The notes beneath the pieces were generated by a model, which was given only the letters and a program-made list of their open reading frames with translations, ran no database searches and was not told the origin of the DNA. This document shows positions 20,069 to 31,936 of a stretch of 64,000 nucleotides of DNA, piece after piece. Position 1 is the first letter of the stretch. Each line of letters starts with the position of its first letter. The translations under genes were made by a program, and so were the position numbers. Source of the DNA: an uncultured delta proteobacterium (GTDB lineage: Bacteria > Myxococcota > Myxococcia > Myxococcales > Anaeromyxobacteraceae); contig CAVYBH010000007.1 of assembly GCA_963766715.1 (NCBI GenBank), positions 1 through 64,000 of the forward strand, read 5' to 3'.

Positions 20069-21412
20069 TCAACCCCTTCGCGCCGGGCGGCGCGCCTTTC
20101 GTTCGGTTCGGCCGGACAGGCGGACGCGGACCGCGCGCGCGTGGGCCTCGAGCCCCTCGGCCGCGGCCAGGGCCTCGACCACCGGCGCGAGCGCGGCGAG
20201 CGAGCCCGGGCTCATCTCCACCACGCTCATGCGCCGCCGGAAGGTGGCGACCGAGAGCGGCGAGGCGAATCGGGCGGTGCCGGCGGTGGGGAGCACGTGG
20301 CTGGGTCCGGCCACGTAGTCGCCGATGGCCTCCGGCGTGAGGCTCCCCACGAAGACCGCGCCGGCCCGGGACAGCCGCGGCACGAGCCGGGCGGCGTCCT
20401 TCACCAGCAGCACCAGGTGCTCGGGCGCGAAGGCGTCGGCCAGCTTCACGGCCTGTGCGAGCCCGTGCGCGAGCACGATGGCGCCGCGGTCGGCGATGGA
20501 GCGGCGCGCGATCTCCTCGCGCGGCAGCCCGCGGAGCTGGCGCATGACCTCGACGTAGGTGGCCTGGGCCACCGCCTCGCTCGTGGCCACCAGCACCGAC
20601 ACCGCGCGCGGGTCGTGCTCGGCCTGGGCGAGCAGGTCGGCCGCCGCCTCGACCGGGCTGGCGTGGGCGTCGGCGAGGACCAGGACCTCGGAGGGCCCGG
20701 CGATCATGTCGATGTCGACCGTGCCGAAGACGAGCCGCTTGGCCGCGGCCACGTAGGCGTTGCCCGGGCCGCAGATCTTGTCGACCGCCGGGATGGTGCG
20801 GGTTCCGTGCGCCAGCGCGGCCACGGCCTGGGCCCCACCCACCCGGAAGAGCCGGGAGACCCCGGACACGTGGCAGGCGGCGAGCGTCCAGGCGTCGACG
20901 TCGCCGGTGGCGCGGTCGGCGGGCGAGACCGCCACGACCTCGGCCACGCCGGCGACGCGGGCCGGGATGGCGGTCATGAGGACGCTCGAGGGATAGCGGG
21001 CCGTCCCGCCGGGCACGTAGAGGCCGACCCGGGCGAGCGGGCGCGACACCTGGCCGAGCCGGGCGCCGAGCTTGTCCCGGTACGGGGGCACGACCGCGTC
21101 GGTCTCGCGGCGGTGGAAGGCCTCGATCCGGTCGGCGGCCACGCGCAGCGCCTTCCGCCCGGCTGCCGGCAGGGAACGCCAGGCCGCCGCGAGGTCCGCC
21201 TTCCCGGCCACCAGGTCGGCCGCCGTGCGCGGCTTCCACCCGTCGAACCGCCGGGTGTACTCGAGGAGGGCCTCGTCGCCGCGCGCCCGGACGTCGGCCA
21301 CGATGGCGCCGGCGGCCTGGCCGACGCCGGCCTCGTCCTCCTCCGAGCCGCGGGCGCAGAGCCGCTTCCAGTGGACGTCGAAGTCGGGGTCGTTTGAGCG
21401 GAGGATCTGCAC
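20069..21412 (-). CDS. hisD: Histidinol dehydrogenase
   Basis: [46 protein letters not shown]. Confidence 0.96.
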
Positions 21413-21476
21413 CGAAGGTCTCGAAAGAGCTACGTTTCTACACGAAACCCGCCGCGCCGCGCTACATTCCCTGGCC

Positions 21477-22589
21477 ATGGCGGCTCGAACGGACGTCTGG
21501 CTGCAGAACCTGCAGGACGAGCGGGACGGCGCGGCGCTCTACGAGGGGCTCGCCGAGGTGGAGAAGAACCCCGACCGCGCGGCCAGCTTCGCCGAGCTGG
21601 CGCACGGCGAGCGCCGCCACGCCAAGGTCTGGCTCGACAAGCTGGAGAAGGAGGGGGTCCACGTTCCCCCGGACCGCCCCTCCTCCCGGGTCCGCACGCT
21701 CATCTGGCTGGCCCGGCGGCTCGGCACCGACGCGGTCATCCCCTACGTCGTGGCCAACGAGGCCGGCGACGCCGACAAGTACGCTCGCCAGGGGGCCGAG
21801 GCCGCGCCCATGGCCGCCGAGGAGCGGGCCCACCAGCAGGTCCTCACCGGCCTGGGCGGCAGCCGCCCCCTCGAGGCCCGCGCCGCCATCGCCACCCGCG
21901 AGGGCTGGCACCGGGGCGGGCGCGGCGGGTCGCTGCGCGCCGCCATCTTCGGCGTGAACGACGGCCTGCTCTCGAACCTCTCCCTCGTGCTCGGCGTCGC
22001 CGGCGCGGGCGCCGAGTCCCACACGCTGGTGGTCACCGGCTTCGCCGGGCTGCTCGCCGGCGCGTTCTCGATGGCGGTGGGAGAGTTCACGTCGGTCGCC
22101 TCCCAGCGCGACATCCTGGCCCGCCAGGTGGAGCTCGAGCGACGGGAGCTGGCCGAGGCGCCGGAGGAGGAGACCGCCGAGCTGGCGCTCATCTTCCAGC
22201 AGAAGGGGCTCTCGGCGGAGCAGGCCGCGCGCATCGCCGCGGAGCTGCTCAAGAACCCGGAGCACGCCCTCGACACGCTGGTGCGCGAGGAGCTGGGGCT
22301 CGACCCCGATGACCTGGGCTCGCCCTGGGGCGCCGCCGGGTCGAGCTTCGCCACCTTCGCGGTGGGCGCCACCATCCCGGTCATCCCGTTCCTCTTCCTG
22401 AAGGGGACGACGGCGGCGGTGGTGTCCTCGGCCGCGGCGGGCGTGGTGCTGGCCGGGGTGGGATCGCTCGTCGGCTTCCTGGCCGGCACGCCCGCCTGGA
22501 AGTCGGCCGCGCGGATGGTGGGGCTCGCGGCGCTCGCGGCCGGCGCCACCTGGGCGGTGGGACACCTCTTCGGCGCCGCGGTGGGCTGA
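21477..22589 (+). CDS. VIT1/CCC1 iron/manganese transporter with N-terminal rubrerythrin/ferritin-like domain
   Basis: N-terminal ExxH motifs (ERRH, ERAH); RAAIFGVNDGL, AGAFSMAVGE, REELGLDP. Confidence 0.9.
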   Translation: MAARTDVWLQNLQDERDGAALYEGLAEVEKNPDRAASFAELAHGERRHAKVWLDKLEKEGVHVPPDRPSSRVRTLIWLARRLGTDAVIPYVVANEAGDADKYARQGAEAAPMAAEERAHQQVLTGLGGSRPLEARAAIATREGWHRGGRGGSLRAAIFGVNDGLLSNLSLVLGVAGAGAESHTLVVTGFAGLLAGAFSMAVGEFTSVASQRDILARQVELERRELAEAPEEETAELALIFQQKGLSAEQAARIAAELLKNPEHALDTLVREELGLDPDDLGSPWGAAGSSFATFAVGATIPVIPFLFLKGTTAAVVSSAAAGVVLAGVGSLVGFLAGTPAWKSAARMVGLAALAAGATWAVGHLFGAAVG

Positions 22590-22622
22590 GCCCGCGGGCT
22601 CGCCCCGGGGCGCCCGCCTCCC

Positions 22623-23946
22623 CTACTCGCTCCCGTCGCCCTCGTCCTCCCCGACGACGGGCCGGGGAGCGAGCTCGTCCTCGACCAGCGCGTCGGTGGC
22701 GCGCATCCGGGCCGACCGGGCGGCGACGCCGGCCCGGCGCCGCTCGTAGTACCGGCTCACCTTGGGGAGGCTGAACCGGTTCATGGTCACCGAATGGGTG
22801 GCGATGGCGTTCAGCCGGTCGACGTCGATGAACCACTCGGGCAGGTACACCGGGCCCACCACGAGCCCCTCGTCCACCAGCTCGCGCACCAGCGCGGCGT
22901 GATCGACGCTCATCTTGCCCGCCAGGAAGGAGCGAACGAGATCGAGGTCGCGCTGCTCGAGCGCGGCGCGGAGGAAGTTGAAGGTCCGGCAGTAGCCTCG
23001 CTGGTAGGCGGCGTCCTTCGTGAACGGCGCGCCTCCCTCGACCACGCCCCCGCGGAAGACCCGCTCCGCCATCTGGGCGGCCTTGGGCGGCGCGAAGCGC
23101 GCGAGCAGGTAGCGGTAGACCTCGAGGAAGTCGGCGCCGCGCGCGGCCATGTCGATGGCGATGGTCCGCTCGCCCAGCTCGATGTAGCGCTCGTCGGTGA
23201 TGTTGCCGGTCAGGTACTCGGCGACGATCCCCCCGCCCTCCTGCGACTCGGTGTGCCGGGCCAGCCCCACCCCGAGGACCGTGAGCACCGGCTGCCGGAA
23301 GCCGTTCAGCGAGGTGAGGACGTGCCAGAGCCCCTCGTGGTGGGCCAGCGCGCGCACCTGGCGGGGGGAGAAGCGCGCCCCCTTCTTGAGCGTGATGCGG
23401 GTCGCCCCCGCGGCGGCGTTGGCGGTGAGGCGGGACCGCACCGTCACCCTCACCTGCCCGCCCAGGAGCGGGTCGCAGAATCTCGTGGACGAGGCGGGCG
23501 GCCTTCTCTGCGGAGAGGCTCTGCTCCTCGTCGCGGGCCCGCGGACGCGACGCCCAGAGCCGGGCGATGGCCAGGTTGTCGGCCTGCACGTCGGGGAAGC
23601 GGTCGCGGGGGTCGCCGAAGATGCGGCGGGAGAGATCGTAGAAGCGGCGGGTGCCCCGGGCGGCGAGCATCTCGGCGACGAGCGCGAACTCGTCGCACTT
23701 CTCCCGGAGCAGCTCCTCCACCGGGTTCTTCCCCCGGATGTGCCGCCGCAGCTCGCGCAGCTCGCGGAGCTTGTCCTTCACGTCGTAGCCGAGCGGCGCG
23801 TACTCGGGCCGGGGCAGCTCGCGGCAGTCGGCCTTGAAGAACTGGGCGTGGACGCGCGGCCCCCAGTTGATGGCCTTCAGGATGCGGATGGGACGCTGGA
23901 TCGCGATCAGCTGATCGGAGAGGCGGCGGAGGGATTCGCGCGTCAC
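22623..23946 (-). CDS. DUF1704 / QEGLA-motif metallopeptidase (Tyr/Phe carboxypeptidase-like); frameshift near 23465
   Basis: IRILKAINW, HHEGLWHVLT..NG..QP, TESQEGG, GADFLEVY, RVFRGG, FTKDAAY; two overlapping ORFs join into one protein. Confidence 0.82.
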
Positions 23947-24038: not shown

Positions 24039-24054
24039 CGGCACGCGGGATGCT
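24039..24054 (+). promoter_or_regulatory. Sigma-54 (-24/-12) promoter of the T3SS-like operon
   Basis: CGGCACGCGGGATGCT is GG-N10-GC, 28 nt before ATG 24082, with an AGGAGG RBS at 24068. Confidence 0.6.
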
Positions 24055-24081: not shown

Positions 24082-24514
24082 ATGGAACCCATCACGACGG
24101 TCATGGTCGCACCCACCGCGGATCGAAAGACCGCGCCCTCGAGCTTCGGAGCCACCCTCCGCGCGGCCGCGGCAGGCGCCGCCGAGGGGCTCTCCGCGGC
24201 GGCGGGGCTCCTCGCCCCGCTCGCTCCCGCCGGGATGATCCTGGCCGGAGCGGTCCGCGGCGCGACGCAGGGGCTCGGAGAGCGGGGCGCGCGCCGCCCC
24301 GCCGGCGGCGTCTCCGGGCACCGTCGCCGGCTCGGGGAGCGGCGACTCCTTCGAGGCCGCCCGCCTCCTCCAGCAGGAGGGGCAGAGCTTCAACCTGCGC
24401 TACCTCGAGCTGCAGGAGCGGCTCCAGCGGGAGACGCGGGAGTTCACCGCCCTCTCCAACGTGATGAAGGTCCGGCACGACGCGGCCCGCGCGGCCATCC
24501 AGAACGTCCAGTGA
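24082..24514 (+). CDS. Small protein with T3SS needle/filament-like C-terminal helix (SctF-like candidate); frameshift near 24290
   Basis: Strong RBS; C-terminal frame reads QQEGQSFNLRYLELQERLQRETREFTALSNVMKVRHDAARAAIQNVQ*; first gene before SctI and SctJ. Confidence 0.6.
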
Positions 24515-24870
24515 ACCCCGTCGCGCCGCTCCGCGTCGTCGATCTCACCGCGAAGGCCGCTCCCGTGGCGCCAGCCCCGGTGGCGGTCCTCCGCCGGGAC
24601 CTCTTCTCCGCGCCCCCGTCGCGCCGCGCGCCGCTTCCGGCCGGCCCCCAGGCGGCGGGCTGGGCGGCCCCGCTCGGGGAGATCGAGCGGGCCCGGGCCC
24701 GGCTCGACGGCATGCTCGCCGAGGCCCGGCGCGGCCGGTCGTTCAGCGCCCAGGAGCTCCTCCTGCTCCAGTCCGACGCCCACCGCTTCGCGCAGTCGGT
24801 GGAGCTCGCGTCCCGGGCGGTCGAGCACGGGGTCCAGGGGCTCCGCCAGGCCCTCCAGGCCCAGGTATGA
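24511..24870 (+). CDS. T3SS inner rod protein (SctI/YscI/HrpB2-like)
   Basis: C-terminus FSAQELLLLQSDAHRFAQSVELASRAVEHGVQGLRQALQAQV; lies directly upstream of SctJ. Confidence 0.72.
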   Translation: MNPVAPLRVVDLTAKAAPVAPAPVAVLRRDLFSAPPSRRAPLPAGPQAAGWAAPLGEIERARARLDGMLAEARRGRSFSAQELLLLQSDAHRFAQSVELASRAVEHGVQGLRQALQAQV

Positions 24871-25583
24871 CCGCTCCGCGACGGCTCCTCTCCCTCGCCG
24901 TCCTCGCGGCGACCTCGGCCTGCGGCGACGAGGTGATCCTCCACCGCCTCGACGAGGGCCAGGCGAACCAGGTCCTCGTCGCGCTCGGCGACGCGGGTGT
25001 CACCGCGCGGAAGGCGCGGGACGCGGGCGACGAGACCAGCTTCGAGGTGGCCGTCCGGCACGTCGAGGCGCCTCGCGCCCGCGGCGTGCTCTCGTCCAGG
25101 GACCTTCCCCGCGCGCGAGCCCCGGGGTTCGCGGATCTCTTCGGGAGCGCCGGGCTCGTCCCCTCTCCCCTCGAGGAGCACGCCCGCTACCTTCACGCGC
25201 TGTCGGGCGAGCTCTCGCGAACCGTCGAGGCGCTCGACGGCGTCGTCTCCGCGCGCGTCCACCTCGCCCTGCCCGTGCCCGATCCGCTCCGCCCGGAAGC
25301 GCGGCGGACGCCTCGCGCCTCCGTCCTGGTGAAGTGCGCCCCCGGGGCGCGAGGGCGCCTCGAGGAACAGTCCGACGGGCTGCGCCGGCTCGTGTCCGGC
25401 GCGGCCGAGGGGCTGGAGCCGGCCGGGGTCGCCGTCGTGATCTCCGAGTCGGCTCCGCCCCCTCCACTCCCGCCGGAGCGCCCGGTGTCGCGATCCTGGC
25501 TGGCGGGTTCCGCGCTGGCGCTCGCGGTGATCTGCGGCGCCGGCGCGCTCACGCTCGGCCGCCGGAGAGCCGACGCTCCGTGA
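24867..25583 (+). CDS. sctJ: T3SS inner-membrane ring lipoprotein SctJ (YscJ/HrcJ)
   Basis: Lipobox TSAC, LDEGQANQVLVAL, LVPSPLEEHARY..LSGELSRT, DGVVSARVHL, ASVLVK, C-terminal TM. Confidence 0.9.
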   Translation: MTAPRRLLSLAVLAATSACGDEVILHRLDEGQANQVLVALGDAGVTARKARDAGDETSFEVAVRHVEAPRARGVLSSRDLPRARAPGFADLFGSAGLVPSPLEEHARYLHALSGELSRTVEALDGVVSARVHLALPVPDPLRPEARRTPRASVLVKCAPGARGRLEEQSDGLRRLVSGAAEGLEPAGVAVVISESAPPPPLPPERPVSRSWLAGSALALAVICGAGALTLGRRRADAP

Positions 25584-25870
25584 ACGCCCCTCTTCGCGTC
25601 GTCGCGCTGGCCGCGACCCTGGTGCCCGACCGGGCCGCCCGCGTGCTCGATCGCCACCTCGGGGTCGGACCTCCCGAGGTCGCGCGCAGCTCTCCGCCGC
25701 CCGGTGCGATCGACTGAGGCAGCTCGCGCTGGCGCTGGGATCGACCCGGAACGGCGAGCGGACGGGCGGAGAGCCAGGGTCCGTCGAGCAGACTGCCGTA
25801 CGCGAGGCGGACCGGGCCGGGCGCCTCGGCGTCGGAGAGCCCGGGGCGACTCCCCCGGCATGGAGGGTGC
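25580..25870 (+). CDS. Short hypothetical protein in the SctK position (frame uncertain)
   Basis: GTGA-coupled to sctJ; reads VNAPLRVVALAATLVPDRAARVLDR before the frame becomes unclear. Confidence 0.3.
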
Positions 25871-26874
25871 TTTCCCGGAACGGACGTGCTTCCCTTCGAG
25901 CTGCGAACGGTTTCCCCGGGGCTGGCAGAGGTCGGCGGGGCGCTGCGGGTCCTCGGCGAGCGGGTCGCTCGCTCGGCTGCGACCGGTCTCGCGTCCGTCC
26001 TGGGAGGGGAGGTGTCCGTTCGCGGCCGCCTCCTTCCGGGCGTACCGGAGCCGGGCGCCTCCGCGCTCGTCCCGCTCGAGCTCACGGCGCTGGCCGGGCA
26101 GGCCTCTCTCCTGGTCGATTGCGGCTTCGCGTCCCGGCTGGCCGAGCGCGTCGCAGGCGCCACGCCTCGCGCCCCCGTCGCCACCTCGATCTCCGCCGGC
26201 CGCCCGCGCCGTCGTCGAGCTGGCCGTCCTCGGTGCGCTCGACGGGATGGCGGCCGAGACCGACGTCGAGACCGCCCTGGCTCCTCGCCTGGGGATCCGG
26301 GAGGGCGCGCCGGCTCGCCCGCTCTGCGTGGAGCTCACCATCGCCGCGGCCGGAACGGAGGGGAGAGCCCTGCTGGTCCTTCCCGGCGACGCGCTCCGCG
26401 CCCTCTCCCGGACCGTCGAGCTGCCCGGGCATCTCGCCGAGCGTCGCCGTGCCGGGATCGCTCCGGAGCGGGTCGACGTGTCTTCCGCCCTCCGAGCTCG
26501 CGTCGTTCCGGGAGGGCGACGTCCTCGTCCTCGACACGGCTCCCGGCGAGCGGGCCACGCTCCGCCTTCGCGGCGGGCTCTCCGCGACCGGCCGGCTCGA
26601 CGGTGATTCCCTCGAGGTGACGGAGGTGGCCTTGGACCGAAACGAGCTGGAAGCGGAGGACCTGCCCGTCGTCCTGGACGTGGAGCTGGCGTCGGTGCCC
26701 GTTCCGCTCCGCGACGTGGCCCGGATCGCCCCGGGGGCCCTGCTCCTGCTGGGGCTCGACCGCGACGGACGGGTCGCGCTCCGGATCGGCGAGCGCACCG
26801 TCGCCCACGGCGAGCTCGTGGAGGTGGACGGGGCCGTGGGGGTGCGCATCCTCGCCCTGGAGCCTGCACCGTGA
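25860..26874 (+). CDS. sctQ: T3SS cytoplasmic ring protein SctQ (FliM/FliN SpoA domains); several frameshifts
   Basis: C-terminal SpoA domain DLPVVLDVELA..VALRIGERTVAHGELVEVDGAVGVRI; the N-terminal part is spread over three frames. Confidence 0.82.
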
Positions 26875-27182
26875 GGCGCCCGTTCCTGCGCCGGGCCGCG
26901 TCGCTCGCACCGGTCGCCCTCCTCGCCTCCTGCGGCGAGGCCCCGGCCAGCGCGATGCGGGCGTCGGCCCTGATCGGGGCGCTCGCGCTCGCCGGGGCGC
27001 TCGTCCGGCGCCGGCGGGGGGCGCATCCGGGCGACGGGGCCCTGGAGGTGACGTCCCGGGCCTGGCTGGGTCGCGACGCGGGCGTCGCCCTCGTCCGCGC
27101 ACACGGGGAGGCGTTCCTCGTCGGCTTCGGGCGCGAGGGCGTCCGGCTCCTCTCCCGCCTCGGACGAACGGGCCCGCCATGA
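26871..27182 (+). CDS. FliO-like small membrane protein
   Basis: TM segment followed by LEVTSRAWLGRDAGVALVRAHGEAFLVGFGREGVRLL, a FliO-type beta domain; sits between the FliN-like and FliP-like genes. Confidence 0.7.
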   Translation: MRRPFLRRAASLAPVALLASCGEAPASAMRASALIGALALAGALVRRRRGAHPGDGALEVTSRAWLGRDAGVALVRAHGEAFLVGFGREGVRLLSRLGRTGPP

Positions 27183-27850
27183 TCGCACCGGCCCTCGCGC
27201 AGGCGCTGCCGGGCGAGCGCCCCCTGGAGCTGCTGCTCCTCCTCGGAGCCCTGGCGCTCGCTCCCCTCGCGATCGTCACGCTCACCTCCTTCCTGAAGGT
27301 GGTGGTCGTCCTCTCCGTGCTCCGCTCCGCGCTCGGCGCGCCCCAGGTCCCGCCCAACGCAGCGGTGACCGGACTGGCGCTGCTCGTCACCTTGCTCGTC
27401 ATGCAGCCGGTCGCGGAGGCCTGCCGGGAACGCTGGAAGGAGGGCCCTCCGCCTCGCGGCCCGGAGGAGACTCTCGCCGCCGCCTCGAGGGCCGCCGAGC
27501 CGCTGCGGGCCTTCCTGGCCCGCTTCGCCGCTCCGTCCGACCGGCGCGCCTTCGCCGACCTGGCGGCGCGCGCGGGGGGAATCGCTGCCTCGGCCGACGG
27601 CACGGAGGACTTCCGCGTCCTCGCGCCGGCCTTCGTCGTCTCCGAGCTCCGTCGCGCCTTCACCATCGGGTTCCTGGTGTTCCTCCCCTTCCTCGTCGTC
27701 GACCTGGCCGTGGCGAACGTGCTGCTCTCGCTCGGGCTCACCCAGCTCTCGCCGACGGCCGTCGCCCTCCCCTTCAAGCTGCTCCTGCTCGTCGCGGTCG
27801 ACGGCTTCGGCCTGCTCGCCCGGGGACTTGCCGCCGGCTACCTCCGCTGA
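27179..27850 (+). CDS. sctR: Export apparatus SctR (FliP family)
   Basis: TSFLKVVVVLSVLRSALG..QVPPN, PAFVVSELRRAF.IGF..FLPFLVVDL, ALPFKLLL..DG. Confidence 0.93.
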   Translation: MIAPALAQALPGERPLELLLLLGALALAPLAIVTLTSFLKVVVVLSVLRSALGAPQVPPNAAVTGLALLVTLLVMQPVAEACRERWKEGPPPRGPEETLAAASRAAEPLRAFLARFAAPSDRRAFADLAARAGGIAASADGTEDFRVLAPAFVVSELRRAFTIGFLVFLPFLVVDLAVANVLLSLGLTQLSPTAVALPFKLLLLVAVDGFGLLARGLAAGYLR

Positions 27851-28124
27851 GGACGACCTGGATCCGAGCGTCCTGACCGCCGGCCGCGAGGCGCTCCTGG
27901 TCGCCCTGGTGGTCTCGGCGCCGCCTCTCGCAGCGGCGCTCCTCGTCGGCCTCGTCTCCGGCGCTCTCCAGGCGGCGACCCAGATCCAGGACCACTCGCT
28001 CGGGGCGGTTCCCCGCCTGGCCGCCGTCCTGGTGGCGACCGGCCTGGCCGCACCATGGGCCGCCGCGCGACTGGCGCGCTTCGGGCAGGCCTGCCTCGAG
28101 GCTGCGCTGCGCCTGCCTCCATGA
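27828..28124 (+). CDS. sctS: Export apparatus SctS (FliQ family); true start probably near 27858
   Basis: VGLVSGALQAATQIQDHSLGAVPRL. Confidence 0.9.
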   Translation: MPPATSAEDDLDPSVLTAGREALLVALVVSAPPLAAALLVGLVSGALQAATQIQDHSLGAVPRLAAVLVATGLAAPWAAARLARFGQACLEAALRLPP

Positions 28125-28894
28125 GCGGCCCCATCGACCTCGGCGCCGTGGCCGCCGCCGCGCTCGACCTGGGCGCCTGCTCGCTCCGCCTGATCCCGGT
28201 GGTGGCGCTGTCCCCTTTCCTCGGCGGACCGGTTCTCCCTCCGGTGGCGCGCGCGGCGCTCGCCCTCACCCTGGGCGCGGTGGCCCGGACCGCGGGAGCG
28301 GGCCTTCCCCCGGGCCGACCCTTCCTCGAGGTCGCGGCCTCGGAGCTCGCGCTGGGTGCGGTGCTCGCCTTCGCGGCCACCCTCCCGGTGGAGGCGGCGC
28401 GGGGAGCGGGCCGGCTCGTCGACACGCTGCGGGGTGCGACCCTGGGAGAGCTGCACGTGGCCCCGATCCGGCAGCGCGAGACCGCCCTCGGGGACCTGCT
28501 CGCGCAGTGGACGGTGGCGCTCGCCGGCTGGGTGGGGGCCGACCGCCTGCTCCTGGCCTCGCTCCTCGACACCTACAGGGTCATCCCGGTGGGTGCGGCA
28601 GTGGACGGCACGCTGCGCGCGGGGGGCGCTGCCGCCTCGGCCGGTGAGCTCCTCTCGGCCGCCCTCTGCCTGGGCGCGCCGGCCGCTGCGGCGCTGCTCT
28701 GCGCCGACCTCGCACTCTCCGTGGCCGCCCGCCTGGCGCCCCGGCCGGCGCTCCTCGACGCGGCGCCGCCGGCACGCGCCGCGCTGGGGATCGTGGCGGT
28801 GGCGCTGCCGGCCGCGGCCATCGGAGGGCGGCTGGTGGAGCTCGTGGCGCTCTCCAGCGGGATCGTCCATCGGGTCGCCGGCGGTGCGCCGTGA
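28121..28894 (+). CDS. sctT: Export apparatus SctT (FliR family)
   Basis: Hydrophobic; SPFLGG, ELALG, AGRLVDTLRG, DLALSVAARLAP; follows sctS. Confidence 0.85.
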   Translation: MSGPIDLGAVAAAALDLGACSLRLIPVVALSPFLGGPVLPPVARAALALTLGAVARTAGAGLPPGRPFLEVAASELALGAVLAFAATLPVEAARGAGRLVDTLRGATLGELHVAPIRQRETALGDLLAQWTVALAGWVGADRLLLASLLDTYRVIPVGAAVDGTLRAGGAAASAGELLSAALCLGAPAAAALLCADLALSVAARLAPRPALLDAAPPARAALGIVAVALPAAAIGGRLVELVALSSGIVHRVAGGAP

Positions 28895-29924
28895 GCCGGA
28901 GCTTTCCTCCGTCGCCGCGTCGCCTCCGCGAGGCTCGTCGCCGGGGTGAGGTCCCGGTGAGCCGGACCCTCGTCGGCCTGGGAGCCGCCGTCGCCGGGCT
29001 CGCCGCCGTCGGGGCTTCCCTGCCGGAAGTGGCCCGGGAGCAGGCCGGAGCGCTGCGGCGTGCGCTGCAGGCGGCGGTCGCGGGAACCGATCCCGTGCCG
29101 CTCGACCTCGCCCTCGAGGCGCTTCACGGCGTGGGGCGACTCGCGCTTCCGCCCGCCGCCGCGGCCTGCGCGGGCGCGCTCCTCGCCGGGCTGGCGCAGA
29201 CCGGCGGCGCCTTCGCACCCGAGGCCCTGCGGACGCGCGGGTCCCGCCTGTCCCCGTCGGCCGGCCTGCGCCGCCTCCTCTCGCCGGCCGCGCTCGGCCG
29301 GTCCGCGTTCACGCTGGCGGTGGGCGCGGCGGCGCTCGCGATCGCCGTTCCTGGCCCTCGCGGCCCAGGCCCCCACGCTGGCCCGGCTCCCGAGGCTCCT
29401 TCCGGGGAGCGCGTGGAGCTCCGCAGCCTCCGTGGTCGCCTCCGCCGCCGGACCTCTCGCCCTGCTCCTCGCCCTCGCCGGCGCGGGCGAGCTCCTGCTC
29501 GTGCGTCACCGCCACCTGTCGAGCCCTCCGGATGACCCGCTCCGAGCTGGAGCGGGACCAGCGCGAGGACGAGGGCGATCCCCGCCTGAGATCCGAGCGG
29601 CGGCGCATCCATGCCTCCCTCGCCCGGTCGGGAGCGCGAGCCGCCTGCGTCGTGGTCAACCCGACCCACCTCGCCGTCGCGCTCTCCCACCGGGCGGGCG
29701 CCGACGACCCGCCGTTCGTCCTCGCCAAGGCGTCGGGCGCCCGCGCCGCATCGCTCCGGCGGGAGGCGCGCCGGCTCGGCGTCCCGGTGATCCACGACCG
29801 TCCGCTCGCGCGCGCCCTGTTCCGGCTGGCGGACGTCGGCGAGGCCATTCCCGAGGAGCTCTACGAGGCGACGGCCGCGGTGCTGGCGTACGTGCACGCC
29901 CTCGCGCGAGGGGACGGGCCGTGA
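28891..29924 (+). CDS. sctU: Export switch protein SctU (FlhB family); frameshifts near 29350 and 29530
   Basis: PSPRRLREARRRGEVPVS, MTRSELERDQREDEGDP, autocleavage motif NPTH, PLARALF, IPEELYEATA. Confidence 0.9.
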
Positions 29925-31936
29925 AGCCCGTCCGGGCGCCGGCAGGCCGCTGGCTCCGGCTTCGCGGAGCGGCCGAGCTCGCGCCGGGGGCCGCGGTGGT
30001 GGGGGTGGTGGCGCTGCTCTTCATCCCGGTGGGCCCCGGGGTCATCGACGTCCTTCTCGCGGCGAGCCTCGGGATCTCCGCTTCCGTCCTCCTGGCCACC
30101 CTGCTGGCGCCCGACGCGCTCCGCCTCTCGGCGTTTCCCGCGCTGCTGCTCCTCACCACGCTGCTGCGCCTGTGCGTCGCGGTCGGCTCCACCCGCCTGG
30201 TGCTGACGAGAGGCGAGGCCGGTCGGGTCGTCGAGGCCCTGGGTCGCGTGCTGGTCCAGGGGAACTGGGTGGCGGGAGCGGTGGTCTACGCGATCCTCGC
30301 GCTGGTCCAGCTCCTGGTGATCGCCAAGGGCGCGGAGCGGGTCGCGGAGGTGGCCGCGCGGTTCACGCTCGACGCGCTGCCCGGCAAGCAGATGGCCATC
30401 GACGCCGAGCTCCGGGCGGGCGCCATCGACGCCACCGAGGCCGGACGGCGGCGGCGCGCGCTCGAGCAGGAGAGCCAGCTTCGAGGCGCCATGGACGGCG
30501 CGCTCCGGTTCGTGAAGGGGGACGCGGTGGCCGGCATCGCCATCGCGCTCGTGAACTCGGTCGGGGGATTCGCCTCCGGGCTCCAGCGCGGGATGACGCC
30601 GGGAGCGGCTGCGCGCCGGTACGTGCTGCTCGCCGTGGGCGACGGCCTCGCTTCCCAGATCCCGGCGCTCCTGCTGGCCGTCGCCGCGGGCATCTCGGTC
30701 ACACGGACGGTCAGTGACGAGCGGAGCGTCGCGTCCCACCTCGCCCGCGAGCTCGCCGCCGAGCCCCGCGCCCTCCTCGCGTCGGGGGTCCTCCTCGCTG
30801 CCCTGGGCCTCGCGCCGGGGCTTCCGGCCGCGCCGTTTCTCTCGCTCGCCGCGATCCTCGGGGTCGCCGGGTGGAGGGGACTTCGTCCGCGGAGCGCCGA
30901 GGCGGACCCCGGGCCGGCATCCGGCGGCCCGCAGGGCGTGAACGCTCCTCCGCCCTGCGTGCTGGTGGAGCTCTCGCCGGAACTGCTCGGCTCGCCGGCC
31001 ACCGGCTCCTCGACGCTGCAGGAGACGGCCGCGGCGCTGAAGGGGGAGCTGTGGCGAACGACGGGCGTGCCGATCGGCGGCGTCGCGGTGGTTGCGGCGC
31101 CGCTCCGGCCCGGCGCATGGCGCGTCGTCATCGAGGGCGCCCAGGCGGCCTGCGGCATGGTCGCCCTCGACCGGGCGCTCTGCCTCGTCCCGCCCGACGA
31201 GCTTCGCCTGGCTGGCCTCGCGTCCGCGCCTGGTCGGCATCCGCTCACCGGCGCCCGCGCCGCCCTCGTCGCAATCTCCGATGCGGACCGCGCCCGGGCC
31301 CTGGGCGGAGTCCTCGATCCCCCGAGCCGCGCCCTCGCGGAGGCGCACGCGGCGATCCGGCGCTCGGCGCATCTCCTCGTCGGCGTGCAGGAGGTCCAGG
31401 CGCTGCTCGACTGGCTCGAGCCGTCCGCGCCGGCGCTCGTCCGCGAGGTGGCGCGCCAGATTCCCCCGGCGGTCCTCGGCGAGACCCTGCGCCGGCTCCT
31501 CGAGGAAGGCGTCTCGATCCTGCCCCTGCGCGTGATCCTCGACGCCCTGCTCTCCTTGCCCCCTGGGGCCCCGGCGCCGGTGCTCGCCGATGCGTGCCGC
31601 CGGTCCCTGTCCCGCCACATCGCACAGCCGCTCCTCCGCGGCCGCACCCTCGAGGCGCTCTTGCTCGACCCGGGCGCCGAGCTCGTCCTGCGGGACGCGC
31701 TCCACGGCGACGTCGCGGCGCTATCGCCCTCGCGCGCCCAAAGCCTCGTCGAGTCGGTCGAGTCCGGGCTGACGGCAGCGCCCCACGCCCGGGCGCTGCT
31801 CGCGCCCACGGACGTGCGCCGTCCGCTGCGAAGCTTGCTCGCGCAGAGATTTCCAGAGCTTGCGGTGCTGGGGTACGACGAGCTTCCGCCCGACCTCGCG
31901 GTCAGGCCGGTCGGGCGCGCAGCGTTCTCCGAGTGA
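29921..31936 (+). CDS. sctV: Export gate SctV (FlhA/FHIPEP family)
   Basis: FPALLLLTTLLRL, IAKGAERVAEVAARFTLDALPGKQMAIDAELRAG, GAMDGALRFVKGDA, GDGLASQIPALL, LLEEGVSI. Confidence 0.95.
   Translation: MKPVRAPAGRWLRLRGAAELAPGAAVVGVVALLFIPVGPGVIDVLLAASLGISASVLLATLLAPDALRLSAFPALLLLTTLLRLCVAVGSTRLVLTRGEAGRVVEALGRVLVQGNWVAGAVVYAILALVQLLVIAKGAERVAEVAARFTLDALPGKQMAIDAELRAGAIDATEAGRRRRALEQESQLRGAMDGALRFVKGDAVAGIAIALVNSVGGFASGLQRGMTPGAAARRYVLLAVGDGLASQIPALLLAVAAGISVTRTVSDERSVASHLARELAAEPRALLASGVLLAALGLAPGLPAAPFLSLAAILGVAGWRGLRPRSAEADPGPASGGPQGVNAPPPCVLVELSPELLGSPATGSSTLQETAAALKGELWRTTGVPIGGVAVVAAPLRPGAWRVVIEGAQAACGMVALDRALCLVPPDELRLAGLASAPGRHPLTGARAALVAISDADRARALGGVLDPPSRALAEAHAAIRRSAHLLVGVQEVQALLDWLEPSAPALVREVARQIPPAVLGETLRRLLEEGVSILPLRVILDALLSLPPGAPAPVLADACRRSLSRHIAQPLLRGRTLEALLLDPGAELVLRDALHGDVAALSPSRAQSLVESVESGLTAAPHARALLAPTDVRRPLRSLLAQRFPELAVLGYDELPPDLAVRPVGRAAFSE

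Follow-up and report, generated by a model that had tools for sequence, protein, structure and literature searches.

A short myxobacterial type III secretion operon with a putative needle-like first gene, a separately encoded ATPase and a possible link to DNA acquisition

How does a secretion system of type III (T3SS) work when its operon encodes neither an ATPase nor an outer-membrane secretin? The question is raised by a coupled operon at positions 24082-31936 of the forward strand in the 64,000-nucleotide stretch analyzed here (hereafter the window, contig C7 1-64000), which belongs to a 4.2 Mb assembly of 18 contigs and 85% completeness from an uncultured member of the Anaeromyxobacteraceae. 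Pfam and NCBIfam models match SctJ, the SctQ C-terminus, FliO, SctR, SctS, SctT, SctU (in two pieces) and SctV, and the operon contains no sctN, sctL, sctD, secretin or flagellar gene, as a first-pass annotation made from the sequence alone had correctly observed. That annotation proposed either a stand-alone export machine driven by the proton motive force or one that obtains its ATPase and secretin from elsewhere. The T3SS is not ATPase-less: a dedicated Myxo-type sctL-sctN-sctO module is encoded at a separate locus. The best explanation of the evidence as a whole, and in our judgment a probable one, is a multi-locus, ATP-driven filament builder that possibly serves DNA acquisition. The parts of this explanation differ in strength, since an ATP-driven machine assembled from several loci is very probable while a function tied to competence is a tentative suggestion.

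An export gate and its separately encoded ATPase

The sole FliI/YscN-type ATPase that scores above cut-off in the host genome lies on contig C12 (708770-710089, reverse strand), and its Walker A, Walker B, GERGRE-type and SRxM motifs are all intact. An SctL-like gene precedes it (TIGR02499, E = 1.7e-14), and an SctO-like coiled-coil gene overlaps its 3' side; the latter is frameshifted in the host, encodes 130-170 amino acids in eight relatives and matches the SctO of the 'long' myxobacterial T3SS locus weakly (E = 0.004). We compared a family set of 60 genomes, 59 with a completeness of at least 90% plus the host genome, and separated SctR and SctN from FliP and FliI at ~55% identity. All 13 fetched family loci place the three genes after rpoC and a sigma-70-type gene. 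In a tree of 28 ATPase rows, which includes FliI and two canonical SctN, 12 of these satellite ATPases form a clade (99/98) that is sister to five long-locus SctN (99/99), with FliI and the two canonical SctN apart. Eight SctN matches among the family genomes contain one internal TGA. The short sigma-70-type factor between rpoC and sctL (C12 710816-711589, reverse strand, in the host) is 88-99% conserved; it is retained in three of the four T3SS-loss genomes described below and was not found in the fourth, G018.

A stand-alone export gate that runs on the proton motive force without any ATPase is consequently very unlikely. No sctL, sctN or sctO gene lies within the 46 SctV-bearing loci of a wider comparison of 80 GTDB loci, which would suit such a gate, as would three Myxococcaceae-like genomes (G029, G036 and G025) that each carry two SctV gates and one ATPase over cut-off, located inside the long locus in G029 and G036; the short gate of these genomes therefore shares that ATPase or does without. 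Against this stands the behavior of the family itself, which keeps the Myxo-type sctL-N-O operon under purifying selection and has deleted it together with the gate. Of the two proposals of the first-pass annotation, an ATPase from elsewhere is thus borne out and the stand-alone, proton-driven machine is not.

The annotation counted about 11 tightly coupled genes; the coupling is real and the count is ten, because the SctK-like and SctQ parts are fused in the host genus. Gene 1, a putative SctF-like filament subunit (24082-24514; hereafter F), encodes ~145 amino acids with a low-complexity N-terminal extension and a needle-like C-terminal helix, carries one assembly frameshift near 24279, and has its closest named loci in Anaeromyxobacter and Anaeromyxobacteraceae records. 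It is followed by the SctI inner rod (24511-24870), which has no relevant Pfam match in the window protein and whose G036 orthologue matches PF17001 under cut-off (E = 4.7e-5), and by the SctJ inner-membrane ring lipoprotein (24867-25583; PF01514, E = 6e-25; TIGR02544, E = 2.5e-37). Next comes the SctK-like/SctQ C-ring fusion (25580-26874; FliMN_C, E = 4e-18), which has four frame changes in the host assembly. This fusion is genus-specific, being one open reading frame of 413-431 amino acids in six of the six genus relatives that have the region and two separate genes in all ten other-genus loci listed, and the 'short unknown' frame annotated at 25580 is its 5' end. Its SctK-like part resembles the long-locus K weakly at the N-terminus (E = 0.0013, probability 18%) and has no relevant match in Pfam or among PDB sequences, so that the name SctK is a weak one, given by position and this match. 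In the short operon of one relative, G021, an insertion of ~2 kb separates K from Q (L050, 2900-5000).

The remaining genes encode a FliO-like export-gate chaperone (26871-27182; PF04347, E = 9.5e-6), SctR (27179-27850; PF00813, E = 9e-59), SctS with an uncertain start (27828-28124; PF01313, E = 4e-21), SctT (28121-28894; PF01311, E = 3e-26), SctU, split by assembly frameshifts with PF01312 on both halves (28891-29924), and the SctV export gate of the short-locus clade (29921-31936; PF00771, E = 1e-161). The NPTH motif of SctU and both SctV motifs named in the annotation are present in translation. The strong alanine, leucine and arginine drift that it also described is real but modest, because these residues make up 0.41-0.51 of SctJ, SctR, SctT and SctV against 0.25-0.40 of five neighbors and controls. 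Beside the operon lie a gene for a Rubrerythrin-VIT1 fusion (21072-22589, forward strand), conserved at this site with or without the T3SS, and an adjoining MATCAP/DUF1704-family peptidase gene (22381-23946, reverse strand) broken at 23479 by an assembly error of one base.

The host genome holds one SctV/FlhA copy. It has no match to the rod and hook family PF00460, in an 85% complete assembly searched with this single flagellar family, and no SctP was found; a second flagellar or long T3SS set was also searched for in it and not found. The closest relative has degraded second SctR/FlhA-like matches, possibly a flagellar remnant (G008, C8 22288-26908).

Is the operon a decaying relic? Seven frame breaks interrupt it in the host assembly, its branches are long, and its ratios of nonsynonymous to synonymous substitution (dN/dS) are mostly higher than those of housekeeping controls. 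The breaks in F, K-Q and SctU are peculiar to the host assembly: F is unbroken in each of 16 relatives, and SctU runs open for 360 codons or more in each of 18. Against contigs from four public short-read runs, ~96-97% identical, the window shows single-base indels at 24279 (two runs), 25680 (three) and 25874 (two), and another in the unrelated neighboring gene at 23479 (four runs); the contigs of one run, X1, have two gaps each over the remainder of Q and over U. The frameshifts of the operon are assembly errors. By the Nei-Gojobori method on six pairs among four genus relatives, estimates that are rough owing to high G+C content, dN/dS is 0.15-0.43 for the operon (0.15 for F) and 0.18-0.35 for the satellite genes, compared with 0.03-0.23 for nine controls. 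The operon is thus under purifying selection. Of 20 fetched relative loci, 18 (two of them truncated by contig ends) repeat its order, F-I-J-K-Q-FliO-R-S-T-U-V followed by a head-to-head IHF gene and brkB, and the other two carry a long-locus SctV; named Myxococcaceae including Myxococcus xanthus AM003 (L213) have the same gene order beside IHF and BrkB. With order and site unchanged from the host genus to M. xanthus, with breaks missing from relatives and near-identical contigs and shared by unrelated genes, and with dN/dS well below the value near 1 that the annotation had named as the mark of a relic, decay is the least credible of the readings considered here.

A putative filament subunit, its partners and the way out

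The case for a needle-like subunit is carried by a profile of 25 sequences that combines F, its paralogue FX and long-locus paralogues. Among 177,635 PDB sequences its top match is 7Y6C chain F (E = 2.5e-4; next match, E = 1.4), which upholds the SctF-like label of the first-pass annotation. This chain is labelled a co-chaperone; we take it to be the needle protein EsaG because it has 43 residues and the entry is the complex EscE-EsaG(33-73)-EsaH (PMC9426511). Aligned to an annotated needle with hhalign, the same profile reaches 90.7%, and that needle ranks first of 982 open reading frames. The C-terminal helix of F is thus predicted by the 25-sequence profile to be homologous to the needle polymerization helix, with F-only profiles giving weaker results. 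Single F proteins, which are 132-170 amino acids long among relatives, match T3SS_needle_F (PF09392) in 4 of 17 cases (best E = 0.017), HrpF in 4 of 17 and HrpA in 2 of 17, all under cut-off. The best family member against TIGR02105, a paralogue, reaches E = 5.8e-6 and 26.6 of the 41.7 bits needed. In the ESM Atlas the nearest named family for both tails is formed by PF09392 clusters (19-27% of members annotated), which we treat as leads only.

Several observations weigh against a needle. Needle subunits are helix-turn-helix hairpins of about 70-90 amino acids. F is about twice that size, and AlphaFold models its last 65 residues as a single long helix, not a hairpin. F falls under every curated needle cut-off; F-only profiles retrieved no needle from the PDB, one giving FlhD alone (E = 0.05) and another nothing; and a deep F alignment reached a hhalign probability of 14% with one needle. 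Taking both sides together, we think that F probably builds a filament. The weak resemblance of K and O to their long-locus counterparts tells against the multi-locus explanation as a whole. F-like genes also occur in Bradymonadia, a metagenome-assembled genome of the Pyrinomonadales and others (L212, L215, L238, L240, L246-L249), with no T3SS core match in the fetched flanks.

A search of the host genome with the F-tail profile returned one paralogue, FX (C17 182040 to ~182965, reverse strand), of ~300 amino acids, whose conserved motif block and hydrophobic segment are accompanied by a C-terminal helix as in F. No translocon family matches FX. The gene that follows encodes a TPR protein that, among T3SS families, matches LcrH/SycD best (E = 2e-6 to 3e-14), and the pair adjoins ruvX in the family and also in G029 and G036. 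F and FX have a promoter motif in common: a sigma-54-type -24/-12 motif, identified with what we take to be the consensus, lies ~45 nucleotides upstream of gene 1 (24040-24054, forward strand). Of 17 short loci, 15 have it 43-47 nucleotides upstream of F, and 8 of 10 have it upstream of FX, against a background of 0.006 per 160 bp. It occurs in 2 of 28 Myxococcaceae-type loci.

On the same contig, 4 nucleotides after comEC, begins a gene for a protein of two FHA domains that ends at a transmembrane helix (C17 148468-149202, forward strand). It is built like the SctD-like gene of the long locus (profile E ~1e-38) and is present in 38 of the 60 genomes by a single-query search and in three more by synteny. 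We regard this FHA-FHA-transmembrane protein as an SctD candidate. FHA domains are generic, with 9 PF16697 matches in the host genome, which tells against the assignment. The tie to comEC is looser in G029 and G036, where a gene on the opposite strand stands between comEC and the FHA gene. The sigma-54 motif is absent upstream of comEC and dprA and present in just 1 of 14 sctL regions, which also counts against the explanation that we favor.

How would a filament leave the cell? The host genome has no dedicated secretin SctC. Its three secretins each lie in the operon of another system: a complete type II secretion system (T2SS) operon with GspD (window 48290 to beyond 60545, forward strand), the pilMNOPQ operon of the type IVa pilus (C7 95377-101187, reverse strand) and a Tad cluster (C5 5885-12790, forward strand), with several genes across the three operons frameshifted in the host assembly. 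That filament or cargo exits through one of these borrowed secretins, GspD, PilQ or Tad, is compatible with the explanation we favor and has been proposed for Kil and for T3SS*, the long locus (PMC12075869); we nonetheless hold it doubtful here. The Tad secretin was considered as an obligatory partner and rejected, since 16 of the 29 well-assembled genomes that have the T3SS show no strong N-domain match, and Tad is therefore no general partner. PilQ-like and GspD-like secretins, called by score and position, are among those retained in T3SS-loss genomes, and all four keep one of GspD type in the syntenic position; persisting without the T3SS, they cannot show dependence. Borrowing of GspD, which the first-pass annotation had suggested, is not favored by position. 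Completion to a conventional injectisome by sctN, sctC and sctD genes elsewhere was an outcome that the annotation had named as refuting its reading; the 85% complete genome supplies sctN and sctL, a candidate for SctD and no SctC.

In T3SS generally, the SctR/S/T/U/V gate sits within SctJ, FliO aids gate assembly, and SctU switches substrates. In the ATP-driven filament builder that we favor, the operon would be the membrane half of the machine, with the ATPase module and the FX-SycD pair encoded at separate loci. Judging from family knowledge, K-Q would dock L-N-O, and the FHA-FHA-transmembrane protein may replace the cytoplasmic part of SctD and anchor K. ATP and the proton motive force would drive export of rod and needle-like subunits, SctI presumably first and F after it, polymerizing into a filament. 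The profiles suggest that SycD escorts FX, which might be the filament tip or a minor subunit. Such a filament may help the cell to gain DNA for natural transformation. Least secure are the purpose and the outer-membrane route, for which no dedicated secretin is present.

Joint loss with comEC and dprA

Purpose is addressed by gene loss. Among the 60 family genomes, short-type SctR is present in 45, satellite SctN in 49, FX in 55, ComEC in 51 and DprA in 56. In the 33 genomes assembled into at most 200 contigs, a limit chosen after inspection of the data, 29 have all five, four have none (G050, G052, G018 and G071) and none is mixed. DprA is absent from exactly those four of all 60 genomes, and the nine ComEC-negative genomes all lack SctR. 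The four negatives form two separate clades, and their losses are visible on intact contigs: the operon site is empty in four of four (gaps of 0.7-1.1 kb, or 5.3 kb without T3SS matches in G052), as are the L-N-O site in three of three checked, the site of comEC and the FHA gene in three of three checked, and the FX site in four of four, with a chaperone remnant in two. The loss lineages retain flagellar genes and two to four secretins each.

These data have limits. The 27 genomes dropped for exceeding 200 contigs comprise 14 with gate, ATPase and FX and 13 that are mixed, a pattern that fragmented assemblies would be expected to give. The co-loss profile amounts to only two independent events in five chosen gene families. 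DprA occurs in 19 of 21 other genomes, including families without the short gate, so competence genes elsewhere do not need this system, and neither comEC nor dprA lies within ~10 kb in the 80 GTDB loci. An order-level DprA test gave no independent support for a competence link, and a search at the level of literature listings found no paper linking T3SS to transformation in myxobacteria.

The same multi-locus, ATP-driven machine may accordingly have a job unrelated to DNA uptake, such as adhesion, kin killing, a periplasmic structure or development, with the co-loss of comEC and dprA reflecting a common change of lifestyle or regulator in two lineages. We give this reading real weight, somewhat short of an even chance. 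It gains from there being just two loss events, from the persistence of DprA in families without the system, from the missing F and FX promoter motif at comEC and dprA, and from the loose comEC linkage in G029 and G036. It has to account for losses that were not indiscriminate, since PilQ- and GspD-type secretins and flagellar genes were kept, for an SctD candidate that begins 4 nucleotides after comEC in the host, and for reports that M. xanthus does not need its short system, T3SS(2), to kill prey (PMC10196010, PMC12248157). The most specific form of the competence reading, a natural-transformation device in which a sigma-54-controlled descendant of the injectisome carries a needle-like filament with a chaperoned tip and either lyses neighbors or captures DNA and guides it to ComEC, is unlikely, more so than the competence link itself.

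Comparison with known systems

The first-pass annotation had placed the operon among the secretin-less T3SS of myxobacteria, and order, site and the SctV tree agree. In that tree, a quick search with two canonical outgroups, 13 short rows form a clade with an SH-like approximate likelihood-ratio (SH-aLRT) support of 98, separate from the FlhA clade (100). M. xanthus has two T3SS clusters, the long one containing the ATPase (PMC12075869, PMC10433427), and the operon is therefore the 'short' Myxo locus: the non-flagellar T3SS of Abby & Rocha 2012 (PMC3459982), also called T3SS(2), MXAN_5643-5654 (PMC10196010). Its membership shows in SctR, S, T, U, V, J and I in conserved order and site (SctI through an orthologue under cut-off), in a Myxo-type ATPase at a separate locus, and in the want of an own secretin or flagellar structural genes, within the completeness and search scope given above. 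PMC3459982 lists the export apparatus, ATPase, SctJ and SctI for both Myxo variants and uses the codes 'Syst_1-s' for the Anaeromyxobacter system and '-a' for Myxococcus, and its authors may therefore be aware of the off-site ATPase. FliO, too, was reported earlier in both M. xanthus systems (PMC12248157). The locus is thus known already and parts of its anatomy are new: relative to the consulted text of PMC3459982 we add a locus encoding FX and SycD, an FHA gene that follows comEC, the fusion of K to Q, the co-loss with comEC and dprA, and the presence of two gates but a single ATPase in each of G029, G036 and G025.

In one respect the operon departs from published descriptions. The Myxo systems are said to be without SctF (PMC3459982), T3SS* is termed needleless (PMC12075869, PMC10433427), and a bradymonad T3SS is likewise called needle-less (PMC11509652). 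The operon here opens with an SctF-like gene, as does that of M. xanthus AM003, and since the short loci are orthologous, gene 1 would revise the published 'no SctF'. Our literature searches, with PMC3459982 covered in part, turned up no paper naming an SctF in Myxo systems. The long loci of G029, G036 and G025 also open with an F-like gene, and those of G029 and G036 have several needle-tailed repeats of 72-78 amino acids, which makes 'needleless' doubtful for T3SS* as well; the label may be wrong for the predation system. Needle-tailed genes of long loci were seen at L073 9900-11044 (reverse strand, G029), L076 2008-5048 (forward strand, G036), L074 10327-10899 (reverse strand) and L136 5506-6372 (forward strand). 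The 72-78 amino acid repeats are near-identical, and larger needle-tailed proteins stand next to TPR chaperones.

T3SS* itself (mxan_2434-2464; PMC12075869, PMC10433427), the predation-linked Myxococcus system, draws on the same family of parts, with LcrH-like chaperones, an SctN that is sister to the satellite SctN, and an SctD-like gene of the same FHA-FHA-transmembrane build. The host has no such long locus, its L and N homologues excepted; the single large cluster with N, L, D, P, a FliA-like sigma factor and several LcrH genes is not found there. Because a single ATPase would serve both gates of the Myxococcaceae-like genomes, a T3SS* deletion that includes sctN may inactivate the two systems together.

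These distinctions matter because T3SS(2) has been without an assigned function since 2010-2012, and because the Myxo systems stand as the textbook example of an intermediate without a needle, placed between flagellum and injectisome. The needle-like subunits, the candidate substrate-chaperone pair, the ATPase and the SctD candidate are named targets in M. xanthus and Anaeromyxobacter, and the disappearance of the system along with comEC and dprA suggests transformation as a possible T3SS(2) phenotype. If the transformation device exists as proposed, both 'needleless' systems of myxobacteria would have needle subunits, and gene uptake would for the first time be the dedicated task of a type III system.

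The host system is no flagellum, lacking FlhA- and FliI-clade proteins and, under the single-family search above, rod and hook genes. With a canonical injectisome, that of the Nitratidesulfovibrio vulgaris DP4 plasmid, it has in common the order J-K-(L-N-O-P)-Q-R, a needle-like C-terminal helix, and a SycD/LcrH-like chaperone beside a candidate substrate with a hydrophobic segment. It differs in having FliO and an F of ~2 times needle size, and in showing no SctC, no periplasmic SctD rings and no SctP in the host genome. For purpose, the nearest parallel is the type VI secretion system of Vibrio cholerae, which is coupled to competence (PMC6783263). That is a different machine whose link is experimental, while the link here consists of joint loss and gene adjacency alone; what the two would have in common is a secretion machine serving DNA acquisition.

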